64,000 nt of DNA from a virus. Numbering within the stretch: the first letter of the stretch is position 1; each line of letters begins with the position of its first letter. Location: UHGV virus genome UHGV-0326994. One strand, written 5' to 3'. The notes under the pieces were generated by a model. It had not been told where the DNA came from. It worked only from the letters and a program-made list of their open reading frames with translations, and searched no databases. The translations under genes were made by a program, and so were the position numbers. Below, piece after piece: positions 54,952-61,046 of this stretch.

Positions 54952-55000
54952 CTTATTACTCTCTCTTGTCAGTTAATAAATCATTTTGTGAGGCTATTCT

Positions 55001-55020
55001 AAGGGGCTTCAAAGCCCCTT
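55001..55020 (-). terminator. GC hairpin between rIIA and rIIB (weak terminator or attenuator)
   Basis: aaggggct-tcaa-agcccctt; no clear U-run. Confidence 0.35.
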
Positions 55021-55030
55021 GTCAAACATT

Positions 55031-57397
55031 TTAATCGTAAATTGTAGTCCCTTCTGGAACACACTTCACATCAAAGCCTAAGAACTTACTCACTTCGATA
55101 GGTGACACTTTATTCCAATCTAAATGAGAAAGCAAGAAGTTTTCTTGTTTTCTTTTTGAAAGATAGTTTGTCACCTTAATGACCATACGGTCACCAGCTT
55201 TCTTAATTTTCTTGTACAGCTTTGTGTCGTTGTCAAGGCATTCTTTCAAAGTTTGCAATCTACTAACAGTGTAAGTGTATGCAAACGGTGCAGCAACGTA
55301 TTGGATTTTACCGAACATTGCCTCTACAGCCTCTTCATTACCTTCTAGGAAGATAGTTTTGTTTGTATCCCGTGAATAGCAATAACCACGAGAAATCTTC
55401 CTGTTATTGAATGTAAAGTTTCTGGCAATAATCCAGCTACTTGTAAGGTCAAGAACACCATTCATGTAGATGCGTGTCATATACCTGTTATGATTAATCC
55501 AATGAACATCAGTTAAGCTGTCGTTCAAGAGCTTCTCATCTACTTCAATCCAGTCTTCTGGTATCTTTTTCCAATTTGCTTTTCGGAAAACATAGACTGT
55601 CTTTCCAATAACATTTGCAACTGACTTAGCTACATCTTCTGGAGATGAGCAAAAACACTCACCATCAACTGTGTCACCAACTGCCTTAATGTAAAGCTGA
55701 GGTTCTTCAATTGTGTCTAAGTCTTCTGATACCTCTTTGTAGGAGGCTACACCTTCTGCTGGGACAGCTTTCCAGAGTTTTACAACACCTCTTACAGCTT
55801 CTTTACGCTGGTAATGGTGTTCCTTATCAGACATTTTCACAATCTTTAACAAGCTTTTATCAAGTCTGTGCAGATTGATTAAGTCATCTAACTCTTTTTC
55901 AGTAGAGAATACAAAGACAATACCATTGTATCTGTGAAACAGACCTGACTCACTGGCATAGTCTCGACATGCACCACGCAAGATTTGGTTGCGTCCTACA
56001 GTCTTCTCAGTACCATTTTTATTGCGACGGTCATTAATAACAAACAAAAACTGTTCAATTTGGCTTTTACGCATTGCGCCAAAGATATTGAACATACTTG
56101 CCTCTTGAGTGTAGGAAAGTGCTGTTGCACGAATCTTACTCTCTAAAGAGTTGAACTTGACATAAGCAACCGGATTGTACAGGAAGTCAACTTTAGGGAT
56201 ATTGTTTCCTTTGCTGTCAACCTTAATATTGCCTTTACCATCACGTTCATAAATAACTGAGCCGTCTTCTGCGTAAATAATCCCCCGACGAATGTTTAGT
56301 AATTCTTCTTCCAGAGACTCAAGTTTAACACCACCCCACTCTAGCTTTGGACACACAGCATTAAACATCTCTCGTGAGTTCAAACGTAACTCAGCATAAG
56401 CCTGTGCAGCGTCCATGAGTGTAGGTTGATTATTAACCCCCTTAATAACATCCCTTGTAATCGCTTCAGTTATCTTTTTAGTAGCCTCAATGATAACATT
56501 TTTTGTCGTATCATTCATCTGCAATGCTTCACGAGAAGCTGCAATAGCAACTGAACCAATAGGCATGTAAATGTTTACAAGGTCTACACTCCTACGGAAA
56601 AATTCTGGCAAGACTTTGAAGAAATCATCTCCAAGTAGCGCTTCCATGTTAACTGGATAGGCAATATTACCCATCACCACATTAAACTCTGTCCTGTTAC
56701 CACTAGAACGCCAGCTTTGCTTATGAATCATGGCATCATAGACACCCTCTTCACGGGCAATGACGTTCATATCTGCTAATACATCGTCGTACACAATATT
56801 ACTTTCTGGTTTTACAGCAAAGTATGAGTATACATTACCAGCTTCTTCAAAGAACTTTGAGATACGATGGTCAGCAACTGCTACACGTACAGCTAAACCA
56901 TTAGGCTCTTTTGTTGGGTTAGTGGTTAGCTTGGTTACTTGAGGAATACCATTCTCAAGATAAACAGAGTATTTATTAACAACACCATCAACGTAGCTCG
57001 ATACTGTGAATGACTGAGCAATTGCAAACGGTGACTTTGAACCGATACCCATTGCACCAATGTAGTCATTAGAGTCATTCTTTGTAGAAGCCCCGTAGTT
57101 TAGATACAAACTCATAACTTTATCATGAGTCAATCCAGTTCCAAAATCACGAACTTCAAAGTAAGGCTCAAAACGAGTAGGCAAATGCACATGGAATGGG
57201 ATGTTCTCTTTTCCAGCTTCTTTCTGAGCATCTACTGCGTTACATGACAGTTCACGAATAACTGCCCTTTCTTTAAATGTATATACACCAGAACTCAAAA
57301 GGCTGAACATTTCAGGTGTCATTGTAATCTGTGCTTGAGACGTCTCTAAAGAAGTTGAACTTTTAATCACTTCTGCGTGGTCGTTTACCATGCGCAT
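55031..57397 (-). CDS. rIIA: rIIA-like protein (GHKL ATPase-like N-terminus)
   Basis: 788 aa; N-terminal RELSCNAVDA...DFGTGL...GAMGIGSKS ATPase-lid motifs as in rIIA. Confidence 0.7.
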   Translation of the reverse strand: MRMVNDHAEVIKSSTSLETSQAQITMTPEMFSLLSSGVYTFKERAVIRELSCNAVDAQKEAGKENIPFHVHLPTRFEPYFEVRDFGTGLTHDKVMSLYLNYGASTKNDSNDYIGAMGIGSKSPFAIAQSFTVSSYVDGVVNKYSVYLENGIPQVTKLTTNPTKEPNGLAVRVAVADHRISKFFEEAGNVYSYFAVKPESNIVYDDVLADMNVIAREEGVYDAMIHKQSWRSSGNRTEFNVVMGNIAYPVNMEALLGDDFFKVLPEFFRRSVDLVNIYMPIGSVAIAASREALQMNDTTKNVIIEATKKITEAITRDVIKGVNNQPTLMDAAQAYAELRLNSREMFNAVCPKLEWGGVKLESLEEELLNIRRGIIYAEDGSVIYERDGKGNIKVDSKGNNIPKVDFLYNPVAYVKFNSLESKIRATALSYTQEASMFNIFGAMRKSQIEQFLFVINDRRNKNGTEKTVGRNQILRGACRDYASESGLFHRYNGIVFVFSTEKELDDLINLHRLDKSLLKIVKMSDKEHHYQRKEAVRGVVKLWKAVPAEGVASYKEVSEDLDTIEEPQLYIKAVGDTVDGECFCSSPEDVAKSVANVIGKTVYVFRKANWKKIPEDWIEVDEKLLNDSLTDVHWINHNRYMTRIYMNGVLDLTSSWIIARNFTFNNRKISRGYCYSRDTNKTIFLEGNEEAVEAMFGKIQYVAAPFAYTYTVSRLQTLKECLDNDTKLYKKIKKAGDRMVIKVTNYLSKRKQENFLLSHLDWNKVSPIEVSKFLGFDVKCVPEGTTIYD

Positions 57398-57425
57398 AAT
57401 ACTTTCCTCTTAGTTTACTGTTAAA

Positions 57426-57602
57426 TTACTTATTAAACATTTTACCAGAACCACCACACATAGGGCAACAACCTGCTCTTGTATACCCTTCTCCGCTACA
57501 GTAGTCACACTTTTTGTGTTCTGCAAAGTACTTACAAAGAAGGCAAACAAATATTGCTACACTACCAAGTGACAGTAAAATTTCTATCCAATATGCTTGC
57601 AT
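57426..57602 (-). CDS. small membrane protein with two CxxCxGxG zinc-finger motifs (not in ORF track)
   Basis: 58 aa MQAYWIEILLSLGSVAIFVCLL...CDYCSGEG...CPMCGGSG; GAGGTGA RBS 4 nt upstream of ATG. Confidence 0.45.
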   Translation of the reverse strand: MQAYWIEILLSLGSVAIFVCLLCKYFAEHKKCDYCSGEGYTRAGCCPMCGGSGKMFNK

Positions 57603-57931
57603 GACTCACCTCTCATGTTTTTGTAAAGGATAAAGCTTCTGTCATGAACGATACTTGTAGATACTGCAAAGTTACTTTCAAGCATCTGTTTGTTTGGATT
57701 GTAGAAGCTTTCTTTAAACTCGTCAAGTGCAAATTGGTGATGTTGTGGAAGACCTTTTACACAAACCTTTATTGTGATTGCTGCTGCAACCTTTCCAGTC
57801 AGTTCTTCTTTAGCTGCTACTAAAATTTTGTTGAGGAACTTATGACCATCTTCAGGCTTTTTGATGTTCTCCCAACGTTCTTCTAAGACAATGTTGATGT
57901 TCATTTCTTTGATTTTCATATCTTTTACCAA
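57584..57931 (-). CDS. hypothetical protein
   Basis: 115 aa ORF. Confidence 0.35.
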   Translation of the reverse strand: MVKDMKIKEMNINIVLEERWENIKKPEDGHKFLNKILVAAKEELTGKVAAAITIKVCVKGLPQHHQFALDEFKESFYNPNKQMLESNFAVSTSIVHDRSFILYKNMRGESCKHIG

Positions 57932-58269
57932 GTCCAGTTAACAAGTATGCCATCAAAACCTTTTGCTAAAGGTACACCCTCGTGTTCATAAAATTCAGGA
58001 TTAACTTCGAATCCACGATTTTCAATATACTCTATCATGTATTTCATTACAAAGCTAATCTCTTCATAGTCATCTGGGTCTCTGCCAAAGAACTGTTCTA
58101 TGACAAACATACCTTCTTTTGTAGCAAATTGACAGTGGTGATTGTAGATACCTTCACAGAACTTTTCAAACTTTTCTTTACCGAGAACTTCAAGGATGTC
58201 TGTATAGGCAACTTGCAAATACTTAGGTTGTACAGGCTTCTTATTAAACCATATAGAAAGATTATCCAT
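57925..58269 (-). CDS. hypothetical protein
   Basis: 114 aa ORF preceded by a terminator. Confidence 0.35.
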   Translation of the reverse strand: MDNLSIWFNKKPVQPKYLQVAYTDILEVLGKEKFEKFCEGIYNHHCQFATKEGMFVIEQFFGRDPDDYEEISFVMKYMIEYIENRGFEVNPEFYEHEGVPLAKGFDGILVNWTW

Positions 58270-58283
58270 AGCATTCTCCAGAA

Positions 58284-58308
58284 ATTAAAAAGGCTCCCGT
58301 AGGAGCCT
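58284..58308 (-). terminator. rho-independent terminator after nadV
   Basis: ggctcc-cgta-ggagcc with TTTTT on the minus strand. Confidence 0.65.
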
Positions 58309-58322
58309 CTTATCATATACTT

Positions 58323-60104
58323 TTAAAGCTGCTTGTCAATATTATTTCGAATATCACCAAGAGATGTGTAGCCATACTGCTCAGAATCACTAAAGACTAA
58401 GCGTAGAGCACAAGCTGGATGTTCAAGTGCATCTGCAAAGCTCTGGAATCCATAACCATCTACAGCTTTCAGTTTATCACCATCCCACATAGGTGCTACA
58501 CCACCAAAAGCAGACTTCTTAACACCGCTATCTGTTTTAGGGTCTTTTGCAAGCATAATCTCTTTACCACCAATGCTTGCAAGAGTCGCTTTAACAGCAA
58601 ATGCAAAGGTGTCACGAGTCATGTACTGGTAAGTGTAAGAGCCTACGCCAAACACTACGTTAGAGCTTGCAAAACCCATTTCATACAGACGCTTCAGGAT
58701 TTCGTTTGCACGTTCCAGTGTGATAGAGTCACCATAGATAAGGCCAATGTGTTCATCCAGTACCTTAAAACCTTTGGAGTTGATAGTCCCTCCGAAGATG
58801 TTATACAGGGTCTTAATAGCCCCATCAATCTCTGCTACAGGGCGTGTTACAACGTTTGCAGAACCAACCATATAAGCGTTCTTCAACAGCACTGTATCAG
58901 CAACTTCAAAGTCTTCTCTGTCAACAACCATTTCGTAGCCTTCTGACAGTAGCCATCCAGCAATACCATAGCTGATGTTTTCAAGCTTCATATTCAGAAC
59001 AGCATTCAACATTGTGTCGCTGGCTTCCAACTTACTAAGGTGCTCATAATAAGCCTTTTTAGCGCACTCTAAGTGGATTGCTTTATAACCTGTGACAATA
59101 TGTACAGGGTCTCCAGAGTCAGGACGAATTACCAGTTTACCGTCACGTTCCATAATCTCTTTGCGAAGTGCTGGTAAGATTTCTGACACAGTTCTCCAGA
59201 AGTTATAAGTATCTGAAACAACACTTGCAATACCAGTCGGGTAAGTCTTTGTTAAGAAACGACGGAAGGTCTGCAACTCACCTTTAAAGCGTCTTTCCTC
59301 TTCAATCAATTCATTACCACCTTCCCAAGCAATGTTTGCACACATTACAGAGTGTTCAGTGGCTGGTACAGAACCACCAATATCAGAGACTGGGTAAGAC
59401 TGTCCGTAGATGCGTTTAGCTGTATATACAGCAGGGAAGCTATCAGTCCCTTTAAAGCTGGTCAAGTGACCTACAGCATTAAATGCGTCATCAGTAAAGC
59501 CGGACATACCACGCATAGCAAAGTCATGGCACTGATAAGGTAAATGTAAGTCATTGTCACAAGTAAGGTCAGCCCACTTCTTACAGATGCGTTTGTAGTG
59601 CAATGCAATAGTTGCAATGGTACAAGCCTTCCAAATCTCAGCAGAGAAAGCATCTTCCAGATAACCTGCTACCCAATGAAAACCTGAAACAGTGTTCTGG
59701 AAGACAATCATTGGTACACGCATCGGAACAACTGTACCTTCTTCTACAGCGTATACCTCAACTGGCAGATAGCCTAAGTCGTGAAGTGCTTCCCAATGTT
59801 CTCGACCAATAGCATCTTTACCAAGAACACCGTTCATGACTTCTAAGATTTCGTCAATTGCTTCTTTTTTATCACGTTCAAAGAAAGTGGCGTTCCAATG
59901 GTCTATCAAGTAATCTTTAACAAAACGTTGAATACCAAAAGCTACTACACCGTCAATTGCTAAGGGGCTGTTAAACCATTTGTCGCTACGTGGTGTCAGG
60001 TTGAACATCAAGTACTCTGTTGCGCTAGGATACTGGTAAACATGACCAGATTTGTAAGCATCTGCATTTAAACCTGCTGGTACTGCGTAAAGTGATTTAG
60101 TCAT
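58323..60104 (-). CDS. nadV: nicotinamide phosphoribosyltransferase (Nampt/NadV)
   Basis: 593 aa; size and N-terminal AYKSGH motif typical of Nampt; adjacent to PRPP synthetase. Confidence 0.8.
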   Translation of the reverse strand: MTKSLYAVPAGLNADAYKSGHVYQYPSATEYLMFNLTPRSDKWFNSPLAIDGVVAFGIQRFVKDYLIDHWNATFFERDKKEAIDEILEVMNGVLGKDAIGREHWEALHDLGYLPVEVYAVEEGTVVPMRVPMIVFQNTVSGFHWVAGYLEDAFSAEIWKACTIATIALHYKRICKKWADLTCDNDLHLPYQCHDFAMRGMSGFTDDAFNAVGHLTSFKGTDSFPAVYTAKRIYGQSYPVSDIGGSVPATEHSVMCANIAWEGGNELIEEERRFKGELQTFRRFLTKTYPTGIASVVSDTYNFWRTVSEILPALRKEIMERDGKLVIRPDSGDPVHIVTGYKAIHLECAKKAYYEHLSKLEASDTMLNAVLNMKLENISYGIAGWLLSEGYEMVVDREDFEVADTVLLKNAYMVGSANVVTRPVAEIDGAIKTLYNIFGGTINSKGFKVLDEHIGLIYGDSITLERANEILKRLYEMGFASSNVVFGVGSYTYQYMTRDTFAFAVKATLASIGGKEIMLAKDPKTDSGVKKSAFGGVAPMWDGDKLKAVDGYGFQSFADALEHPACALRLVFSDSEQYGYTSLGDIRNNIDKQL

Positions 60105-60116
60105 CTTTTAGTCTCT

Positions 60117-60141
60117 CTCAAAATGGGGCTATGAAGCCCCT
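60117..60141 (-). terminator. hairpin between prs and nadV
   Basis: ggggct-atga-agcccc followed on the minus strand by ATTTTGAGAG. Confidence 0.5.
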
Positions 60142-60149
60142 ATAAAGTT

Positions 60150-61046
60150 TTAATCAAGGTTTGCTACAGTAACTTGACCATAATGTGTTAACCCACGGTC
60201 TTTAGCTTCCCCTAAAGAGTTTGTAGTGTAGATATGGTCAATACCATTGTCAAGTAAGTTTTCAACACCTTTAGAGAAGATACCATGTGTTACATAGAGT
60301 TCCACACGTTTTGCACCTGCTTCACGTAGGTGTTTCGCTGCCTCTATGAAGGTTCGTCCTCCATCACAAATATCATCCAGAATCATGACTGTTTTATCTG
60401 TCAAATCAACATCATCAAGGATTCGCATACCAGTGATTTCACCAGTCTTGAGGTTACGTACTTTAGACATTGTGATGTATGGCTTATCCACTTCTTTAGC
60501 AGTCTCTGCAATCTTCTTAGCAGCACCTGCATCTGGGGCTACTAAGTAATCAACCAGTGGGTCATTTGCATAGTGGACTGCAATTTCCTTTTGAGGAATA
60601 CTCTGGAAGCAGTTAAACAGGTTATCTGGTACATAGCTGTGAGGGTCAACTGCACAGACTGCATCAAAACCCATTGCATTAACCTGTTGTGCAAACACTT
60701 TCAAAGCTGCTGCATCGCCTTTAAACATGTGACGGTCATAACGTGCATTTGGCAAATAGTAAAAGATAATGGTCTTCATAGCAAACTTATGGGGTACTAA
60801 ATCATCAATTGCTTCTTTAGCAAGTGCCACAGCAAACAATGTGTCTTTATCATAACCTTTTACAATCATAATCACATTGTTGATGGATGATGCTGCATAA
60901 GCAGTGAAATCAACAAACTCTGGTGAAAAGTGTCCACCAATCTCACCAGAAGGGAATTGGATGATGTTAAACTCTTCTTCGTGAGTCCCTTTAGTGGGTG
61001 AATGGACTGTAACACGGATAGATGTTTTCATAGTTTTCTCTCTCAA
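60150..61046 (-). CDS. prs: ribose-phosphate pyrophosphokinase (PRPP synthetase)
   Basis: 298 aa; PRPP-binding motif VMILDDICDGGRTF and flexible-loop region. Confidence 0.8.
   Translation of the reverse strand: MREKTMKTSIRVTVHSPTKGTHEEEFNIIQFPSGEIGGHFSPEFVDFTAYAASSINNVIMIVKGYDKDTLFAVALAKEAIDDLVPHKFAMKTIIFYYLPNARYDRHMFKGDAAALKVFAQQVNAMGFDAVCAVDPHSYVPDNLFNCFQSIPQKEIAVHYANDPLVDYLVAPDAGAAKKIAETAKEVDKPYITMSKVRNLKTGEITGMRILDDVDLTDKTVMILDDICDGGRTFIEAAKHLREAGAKRVELYVTHGIFSKGVENLLDNGIDHIYTTNSLGEAKDRGLTHYGQVTVANLD

Follow-up and report, generated by a model that had tools for sequence, protein, structure and literature searches.

A conserved 58-residue protein with a predicted membrane helix and predicted DnaJ-like zinc knuckle encoded upstream of rIIA in Felix O1-like phages

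The cysteine-rich domain of the DnaJ/Hsp40 proteins (PF00684) is built from four CxxCxGxG repeats that form two zinc sites, and the proteins that carry it also have a J domain, a G/F region and C-terminal substrate-binding domains. Two small proteins make use of only two such motifs. Bacillus Anti-TRAP (RtpA; PDB entries 2bx9 and 3lcz/3ld0) is 53 aa long, forms a single Zn(Cys)4 site from two DnaJ-type motifs and, going by the names of its PDB entries, works purely by binding another protein, TRAP. Anti-TRAP is soluble and oligomerises through a C-terminal helix, and we know of no occurrence of its target TRAP in enterobacteria. The second, the plant thylakoid protein FIP (At5g02160), is an organellar protein of eukaryotes, with reports from mosses and higher plants only; it lacks a J domain, has one membrane helix followed by a C-terminal pair of CxxCxGxG motifs on the stromal side of the membrane, which is equivalent to the cytoplasmic side, and binds the membrane protease FtsH5 (PMC5915565).

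Here we describe a small gene from a 64,000-nt stretch of the virus genome UHGV-0326994 (hereafter the window), which belongs to a Felix O1-like myovirus of the Ounavirinae, genus Felixounavirus. Its 58-aa product has the layout of FIP minus the transit peptide, a likeness of layout only, with FIP taken from its description (PMC5915565). The gene lies directly upstream of rIIA, half of an rIIA/rIIB pair whose mode of action has stayed obscure for about 70 years (PMC11879866). The existence of the gene and its architecture are near certain. Beyond these, we infer its topology, zinc binding, early timing and protein-binding mode, and with moderate confidence we favour the reading that it encodes an accessory, probably early, N-out/C-in inner-membrane protein whose Zn(Cys)4 knuckle faces the cytoplasm and serves to bind another protein.

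Position and earlier annotation of the small gene

Many E. coli, Salmonella and Shigella phages share 94-95% identity with the window over the 3.4 kb around the small ORF. The ORF listing and the sequence place the ORF on the minus strand, running from 57602 to 57426 and encoding MQAYWIEILLSLGSVAIFVCLLCKYFAEHKKCDYCSGEGYTRAGCCPMCGGSGKMFNK. The features of the gene and its immediate neighbours are as follows.

57426..57602, minus strand: small ORF coding sequence, stop included (ATG 57602-57600, TAA 57428-57426)
57606..57612, minus strand: Shine-Dalgarno sequence GAGGTGA, inside the coding sequence of the upstream gene
57584..57602, minus strand: 19-nt overlap of the 3' end of the upstream gene with the start of the small ORF
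57534..57590, minus strand: predicted transmembrane helix, residues 5-23, WIEILLSLGSVAIFVCLLC (hydropathy and AlphaFold2)
57444..57509, minus strand: predicted zinc-knuckle module, residues 32-53, CDYCSGEG-x6-CPMCGGSG, with invariant C32, C35, C46 and C49
57584..57919, minus strand: upstream overlapping gene, 111 aa, PHROG 4262 (phrog_4262, E 1.6e-68)
55031..57397, minus strand: rIIA, PHROG 612 (phrog_612, E 9e-189)

The Shine-Dalgarno sequence, read from 57612 to 57606, offers seven consecutive bases complementary to the 3' end of 16S rRNA and lies 3 nt 5' of the ATG, with its GAGG core 6 nt away; Mooglevirus and Suspvirus relatives have AGGAG or GGAG at the equivalent place. The original prediction had the coordinates of this 58-codon ORF exactly right, the strand being minus, and had likewise picked out GAGGTGA, at a spacing of 4 nt that is in fact 3 nt. 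Its description of the ORF as lying between rIIA and the next gene is accurate at one end, where the stop codon is followed by a 28-nt gap before the rIIA start, but at the other end the first 19 nt of the ORF are inside the upstream gene. This overlap suggests that translation of the small ORF is coupled to that of its neighbour.

Where the prediction erred was in treating the gene as unlisted; it was absent only from a list with an ORF-length cutoff, and it is annotated in public records. Its Felix O1 homologue is ORF131 (Felix01p243, NP_945023.1, "hypothetical membrane protein"), which is equal in length and identical at 54 of 58 positions, the substitutions relative to Felix O1 being V17I, Y20C, Y26F and N36S. 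The protein also matches phrog_3931 with an E value of 6.3e-32, its residues 1-58 falling on positions 1-59 of the 59-position profile. Further homologues are Bas63 gene 83 (bas63_0083, also 54/58 identical), SUSP1 AVU07_agp080, Moogle gp2, mistaenkt mistaenkt_31 and a KhF3 protein annotated as "putative membrane protein". As in the window, the Felix O1, Bas63 and SUSP1 genes overlap the PHROG 4262 gene by 19 nt and stand directly upstream of rIIA. The small gene is, then, already known from GenBank, from PHROGs and from two genome-wide phage screens, and none of the records of Felix O1 ORF131, PHROG 3931, Bas63 gene 83 or SUSP1 agp080 assigns it a function.

Predicted zinc knuckle, membrane helix and topology

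Over the six frames of the 64-kb window CxxCxGxG occurs just twice, against an expectation of 0.2 per shuffled window: as CDYCSGEG (57509-57486) and as CPMCGGSG (57467-57444, both on the minus strand). The four cysteines (C32, C35, C46 and C49) and four glycines (G37, G39, G51 and G53) of these two motifs are invariant among eight diverse family sequences, and the same motif cysteines and glycines are kept in the proteins P0014, P0145, P0130 and P0119. The second cysteine of the "CC" doublet is the motif cysteine; the first, C45, is a proline in P0010. Searched against the sequences of solved structures, the family profile matches the cysteine-rich domain of E. coli DnaJ (1exk, E 2.5e-7) and human DNAJA3 (2ctt, E 6e-5) and, more weakly, Anti-TRAP (2bx9, E 0.033; 3lcz, E 0.076). 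The best Foldseek matches to the AlphaFold2 model are again to Anti-TRAP (3ld0/2bx9), over 27 residues at an rmsd of 1.9-2.0 A, with E values of 0.33-0.92 that are not significant.

An assignment of the two motifs as DnaJ-type zinc fingers had been made from the sequence at the outset; both motifs are indeed present and the family profile matches 1exk, but the protein falls short of DnaJ family membership. It scores 13.1 bits (E 0.12) against the Pfam model DnaJ_CXXCXGXG (PF00684), whose gathering threshold is 32.7, and its 11-14 bits against the NCBIfam DnaJ models, with thresholds of 338-377, amount to sub-threshold noise. It carries two CxxCxGxG repeats in place of the four of PF00684, which allows at most one intramolecular zinc site, and neither a Pfam or NCBIfam match to a J domain nor an HPD motif was found in its 58 residues. 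The small protein is therefore best called DnaJ-like on sequence grounds, not a member of the DnaJ family.

What it shares with the DnaJ cysteine-rich domain (1exk, 2ctt) is the CxxCxGxG motif, the hairpin spacing and the profile similarity; unlike DnaJ/Hsp40 it lacks the J domain, the G/F region and the C-terminal substrate-binding domains, is predicted to be membrane-anchored, and would have one zinc site from two repeats where DnaJ has two from four. The 10-residue spacing between its CxxC pairs is, in the alignments, that of Anti-TRAP and of DnaJ repeats 3-4. The C-terminal 27 residues are those that profile and fold comparison group with the DnaJ cysteine-rich domain and, marginally, with Anti-TRAP. 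The knuckle thus appears to be half a DnaJ cysteine-rich domain with one predicted Zn(Cys)4 site, as in Anti-TRAP. The two proteins are similar in size (about 55 aa) and in building a single site from two DnaJ-type motifs, whereas Anti-TRAP has no transmembrane helix and the similarity is marginal (E 0.03-0.08 by profile, 0.3-0.9 by Foldseek).

The hydrophobic helix predicted at the N-terminus is borne out. Kyte-Doolittle hydropathy averages 2.32 over the most hydrophobic 19 residues, 5-23 (1.97-2.53 in relatives), above the mean of 1.6 over about 19 residues that marks a bitopic protein, and AlphaFold2 places one helix at residues 4-29 followed by short hairpins. This model, built on an eight-sequence alignment with a pLDDT of 74, is only moderately confident. 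E7, S11 and G13 in the helix are invariant, and a search for a conserved face in the transmembrane segment gave no 100-degree periodicity of conservation.

The charges around this helix point to an N-out/C-in orientation. In no family member is there a lysine or arginine N-terminal of the helix, while three to eight lie on its C-terminal side, and the invariant E7 puts an acidic residue at its N-terminal edge. The Pf3 coat protein is a small N-out/C-in protein of this kind and a YidC-type substrate, and zinc sites of the Cys4 kind depend on a reducing compartment. The positive-inside rule and the analogy with Pf3 coat would place the knuckle in the cytoplasm, which we regard as quite likely. 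The assignment is not secure, since the bias in charge is modest, the C-flank next to the membrane carries net negative charge in Mooglevirus and Suspvirus, and some CxxCxGxG proteins are secreted.

These same points lend something to the opposite topology, N-in/C-out, in which a periplasmic cysteine tail would form disulfides or take part in thiol-disulfide exchange and act on a target in the envelope. In addition to the acidic flank in two genera, the otherwise conserved K24 is a serine in P0014, and the CxxCxGxG-repeat proteins P0036, P0105 and P0124 carry signal-peptide or lipoprotein-like leaders. There are precedents as well in the DnaJ-like zinc-finger subunit Moc50, on the non-stromal side of the chloroplast FtsHi complex, and in the thiol-oxidoreductase activity that the published account of ZnJ6 documents for DnaJ-type domains (PMC7865324). 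We nonetheless consider a periplasmic tail unlikely. A helix preceded by no basic residue and edged by an invariant glutamate is the reverse of a signal-anchor n-region, and every lysine and arginine of the protein is found on the C-terminal side.

The probable rIIA transcription unit and the published screens

The gene order in relatives is PRPP synthetase, NadV, one or two small genes, the PHROG 4262 gene, the small ORF, rIIA and rIIB. The identical 19-nt overlap is annotated in Moogle, mistaenkt, PC79-13, Sf14, Bas63, SUSP1, Felix O1 and one metagenomic relative, such that overlap with the PHROG 4262 gene together with a place directly before rIIA is found in the window, in seven annotated relatives and in one metagenomic contig. 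The PHROG 4262 gene is conserved to the same degree as the small ORF and had no match in Pfam, PADLOC or NCBIfam; AlphaFold2 predicts for its product a beta-alpha-beta-alpha arrangement (pLDDT 68) whose resemblance to the IF3 C-terminal domain is non-significant. The PADLOC defence models likewise matched neither the small ORF nor its two upstream neighbours. One predicted protein, P0165, was left out of the PHROG 4262 alignment as a chimera: at 116 aa, on a 95.7-kb contig, it begins with a PRPP-synthetase-like N-terminus and continues into the PHROG 4262 protein's C-terminal half, which implies either a deletion of nadV and its neighbours in that genome or a misassembly.

Two elements near the end of nadV were found by their match to consensus sequences.

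58339-58312, minus strand: sigma-70-like promoter TTGACA-16-TATGAT, overlapping the last codons of nadV
58311-58288, minus strand: 10-bp GC hairpin and T-run, directly after the promoter

Together these consensus matches are a likely candidate for a transcription-unit boundary. Transcripts from this promoter would begin inside the terminator-like hairpin, and the element may be a combined terminator and promoter that provides a 5' stabilising stem. With the next minus-strand terminator-like site at 53828-53805, after rIIB, the genes for PHROG 20372, PHROG 4262, the small protein, rIIA and rIIB probably form one unit driven by host RNA polymerase. The sigma-70-like consensus matches suggest that this unit is probably expressed early; no Felixounavirus transcriptome data that would time its expression were found in the literature searched.

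Just upstream (58323-61046, minus strand) lie the genes for NadV, a nicotinamide phosphoribosyltransferase of 593 aa, and a PRPP-synthetase-like protein of 298 aa. In the Citrobacter phage Moogle a gene for an HNH homing endonuclease stands between the PRPP synthetase gene and nadV (L002 94-585), and it is absent from that place in the window. The Bas63 homologues of these two genes, g80 and g79, are given in the PhageMaP preprint as validated counters to the NAD-depleting defence Sir2-HerA, and the same preprint validates rIIA and rIIB as counters to QatABCD (bioRxiv 10.1101/2024.10.10.617714). The small ORF accordingly has a counter-defence module on either side, NAD salvage on the one and rII on the other.

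This location makes it natural to ask whether the protein is itself a part of the rII system, namely an accessory subunit that anchors rIIA and rIIB, which have no obvious transmembrane segments, to the inner membrane or assists in their assembly. Every Ounavirinae genome examined has the small ORF directly before rIIA. The same holds for the metagenomic homologue P0145, which is only about 30% identical and precedes by 24 nt an rIIA with 82% identity to that of the window, from which it follows that the small protein evolves much faster than rIIA while the layout is kept. In the window, moreover, a scan for promoters and terminators found nothing strong of either kind in the gap from the small ORF to rIIA. 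The gap there holds a weak TTAACA-17-TATTAT whose -10 overlaps the rIIA start codon. In Mooglevirus (L002/L030) and Suspvirus (L003/L004), in contrast, a TTGACA promoter-like sequence about 5-40 nt after the small-ORF stop precedes rIIA and would uncouple its transcription. With a weak remnant of this promoter in the window, transcriptional coupling to rIIA differs between genera. Against an rII role also stands P0130, which has the same architecture on contigs with no rIIA nearby. Phage T4 too has a small ORF immediately upstream of rIIA, rIIA.1, but homology can be rejected, the T4 product being an unrelated soluble protein of 67 aa with no cysteines, and the likeness is positional only.

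The most direct evidence on an rII role comes from published screens. In PhageMaP, barcode insertions with stops in all frames are introduced into phage genes (bioRxiv 10.1101/2024.10.10.617714). The preprint's scores for Bas63 gene 83 are as follows.

S17: 0.25 / 0.11 / 0.48
MG1655: 1.27 / -0.07 / -0.17
TerY-P: 0.10 / 0.51 / 1.16
AVAST4: 0.39 / 0.66 / 0.88
Empty vector: 0.45 / -0.01 / 0.17
QatABCD host: +0.77/+0.66/+0.81

All lie at about zero or above, which in the preprint's scoring makes gene 83 non-essential on the S17, MG1655, TerY-P, AVAST4, QatABCD and empty-vector hosts. On the QatABCD host the scores are negative for rIIA (-1.26/-1.30/-1.61) and rIIB (-1.05/-2.46/-2.45), in contrast to the positive scores of gene 83, so that this rII function does not depend on the small protein (bioRxiv 10.1101/2024.10.10.617714). 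These data weaken the proposal of an accessory rII subunit, which we consider quite improbable, and argue that the neighbour of rIIA is not an obligatory rII component. CRISPRi-ART scored SUSP1 agp080 as "Not Fit" with seven guides, and agp079, the PHROG 4262 gene of the same phage, as "Not Fit" (PMC11879866); for the latter gene the PhageMaP table has no data, the rows of Bas63 gene 82 being empty. On lambda RexAB lysogens, by contrast, knock-downs of rII fail (PMC11879866). Going by these published screens, the small gene is dispensable in the laboratory in two phages, Bas63 and SUSP1.

The same dispensability bears on an older suggestion, made for Felix O1 gp131, that the product is a holin or a lysis-timing protein. 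We judge this very unlikely, and we know of no holin with an invariant Cys4 zinc knuckle such as this protein carries. The suggestion has in its favour that the protein is small, with one hydrophobic helix and a charged C-terminus, and that its gene adjoins the rII "rapid lysis" genes. It was moreover a named candidate in the Felix O1 genome paper, in which Whichard et al. (2010) listed gp131 among five possible holins by "limited criteria" (PMC3185647). However, neither knock-out nor knock-down in two phages brought the fitness loss to be expected of a protein required for lysis or plaque formation, whereas Bas63 genes labelled as endolysin are clearly negative in the PhageMaP scores, and it is Bas63 genes 29 and 153 that carry the holin label in that source (bioRxiv 10.1101/2024.10.10.617714). 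The location also differs from what a holin would suggest, in a unit with sigma-70-like early promoters by the NAD-salvage genes and not beside the endolysin.

Conservation and proposed role

The original prediction had proposed conservation of the reading frame in related phages as a check on the ORF, and that conservation is extensive. Using tblastn, homologues were found in 258 phage records from three Ounavirinae genera, 257 of which cover at least 80% of the protein with an intact frame. Identity ranges from 88-98% in Felixounavirus to about 52-56% in Mooglevirus and about 43% in Suspvirus, the frame being kept across genera at lengths of 57-60 aa. Pooled over 21 distinct Felixounavirus alleles, pN/pS comes to 0.109 in frame, in contrast to 1.8 and 0.95 in the shifted frames, and 29 of the 42 variable sites fall at codon position 3, a pattern that holds across the 158 nt of the ORF that are free of overlap. 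Residues invariant in the alignment of eight diverse sequences are M1, Q2, Y4, W5, E7, L10, S11, G13, L22, K24, C32, C35, G37, G39, C46, P47, C49, G51 and G53, with the serine of P0014 at K24 found later than this alignment. An Rfam scan of 55000-60500 gave no match, and thus no known RNA element explains the conservation.

The small ORF is a genuine gene, conserved and under purifying selection. That it might be a chance or non-coding ORF, short as it is and conserved through the overlapping upstream gene (whose 19 shared nt leave the conservation of residues 1-6 unassignable to one frame) or through regulatory signals of rIIA, is effectively refuted by the pN/pS of 0.11 with third-position variation in the non-overlapping 158 nt, by a frame and motif kept at 43% protein identity across genera and by there being two CxxCxGxG motifs when 0.2 are expected per 64 kb.

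Frameshifted copies of the gene occur in a few deposited or assembled genomes, those of P0003 (phiWec177), P0004 (NJ12), P0005, P0006 and P0013, which read into the alternative frame (…QEQVVALCVVVLVKCLISNLTVN) from shifts at differing positions. These are either sequencing errors or instances of independent inactivation or tolerated loss, consistent with dispensability.

Outside the named phages, the family was sought among 5.8 billion proteins by word index and among 1.84 billion representatives by an exhaustive HMM search. Relatives matching over their full length were few and came essentially from Ounavirinae-like contigs only, one of them being P0014, whose synteny is like that of the window. 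Of the 389 matches listed at E<=1e-3, most of the others are longer multi-repeat CxxCxGxG proteins that match the knuckle only. P0130 and P0119, at 54-59 aa, have the helix and one motif pair and come from unrelated metagenomic contigs without rIIA. The metagenomic proteins P0025 and P0079, of about 96-98 aa, have an N-terminal hydrophobic helix and four CxxCxGxG motifs; these may be membrane-anchored versions of a full DnaJ-type domain, and the phage protein may stand at the minimal end of a broader class yet to be characterised. The Bacillus phage "DnaJ-family Zn finger" proteins reached through a divergent homologue were set aside, as they are about 300-450 aa long and of another architecture.

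Taken as an accessory membrane protein with a cytoplasmic knuckle, the reading we favour, the gene would act as follows. The small ORF would be translated from the minus-strand unit of rIIA, probably coupled to the overlapping PHROG 4262 gene, to yield a 58-aa single-pass inner-membrane protein, most likely inserted N-out/C-in in the manner of Pf3 coat, which would leave about 35 C-terminal residues in the cytoplasm. Within these, residues 32-53 would form a pair of short hairpins, with the four invariant cysteines coordinating a single zinc ion, giving a Zn(Cys)4 knuckle of about 25 residues held a few residues from the cytoplasmic membrane surface. So tethered, the knuckle would bind a host or phage protein at the inner membrane face as an adaptor, a holdase or an inhibitor. 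Protein binding is the default suggested by analogy, with Anti-TRAP, which binds TRAP, and FIP, which binds FtsH5, as the precedents. Any benefit would be limited to particular hosts or conditions.

A more specific version of this proposal, tentative and on present evidence improbable, is that the protein is a minimal counterpart of FIP, a membrane-tethered single zinc knuckle that docks on a host inner-membrane machine and re-tunes it early. Candidate targets would be the FtsH protease, the DnaK/DnaJ system or a membrane-acting defence effector. The original prediction had put forward host chaperones or membrane processes as what the protein may act on.

As a discovery the gene is of low value, being already catalogued and without a laboratory phenotype in the published screens. 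What the present analysis adds is the evidence of selection, the structural class and, by way of existing screen data, a functional separation from rIIA and rIIB. The QatABCD data, in speaking against an obligatory rII role, narrow what merits testing. Where prior annotations say "hypothetical" or "membrane protein", a single-site knuckle of the DnaJ/Anti-TRAP type provides a testable biochemical handle. The gene also serves as a positive control, in that phage ORFs of fewer than 60 codons can be real and strongly selected genes. Were it to prove a counterpart of FIP, it would define a previously unrecognised class of tiny phage effectors based on half a DnaJ cysteine-rich domain, an architecture that recurs sporadically in the unrelated metagenomic elements P0130 and P0119.
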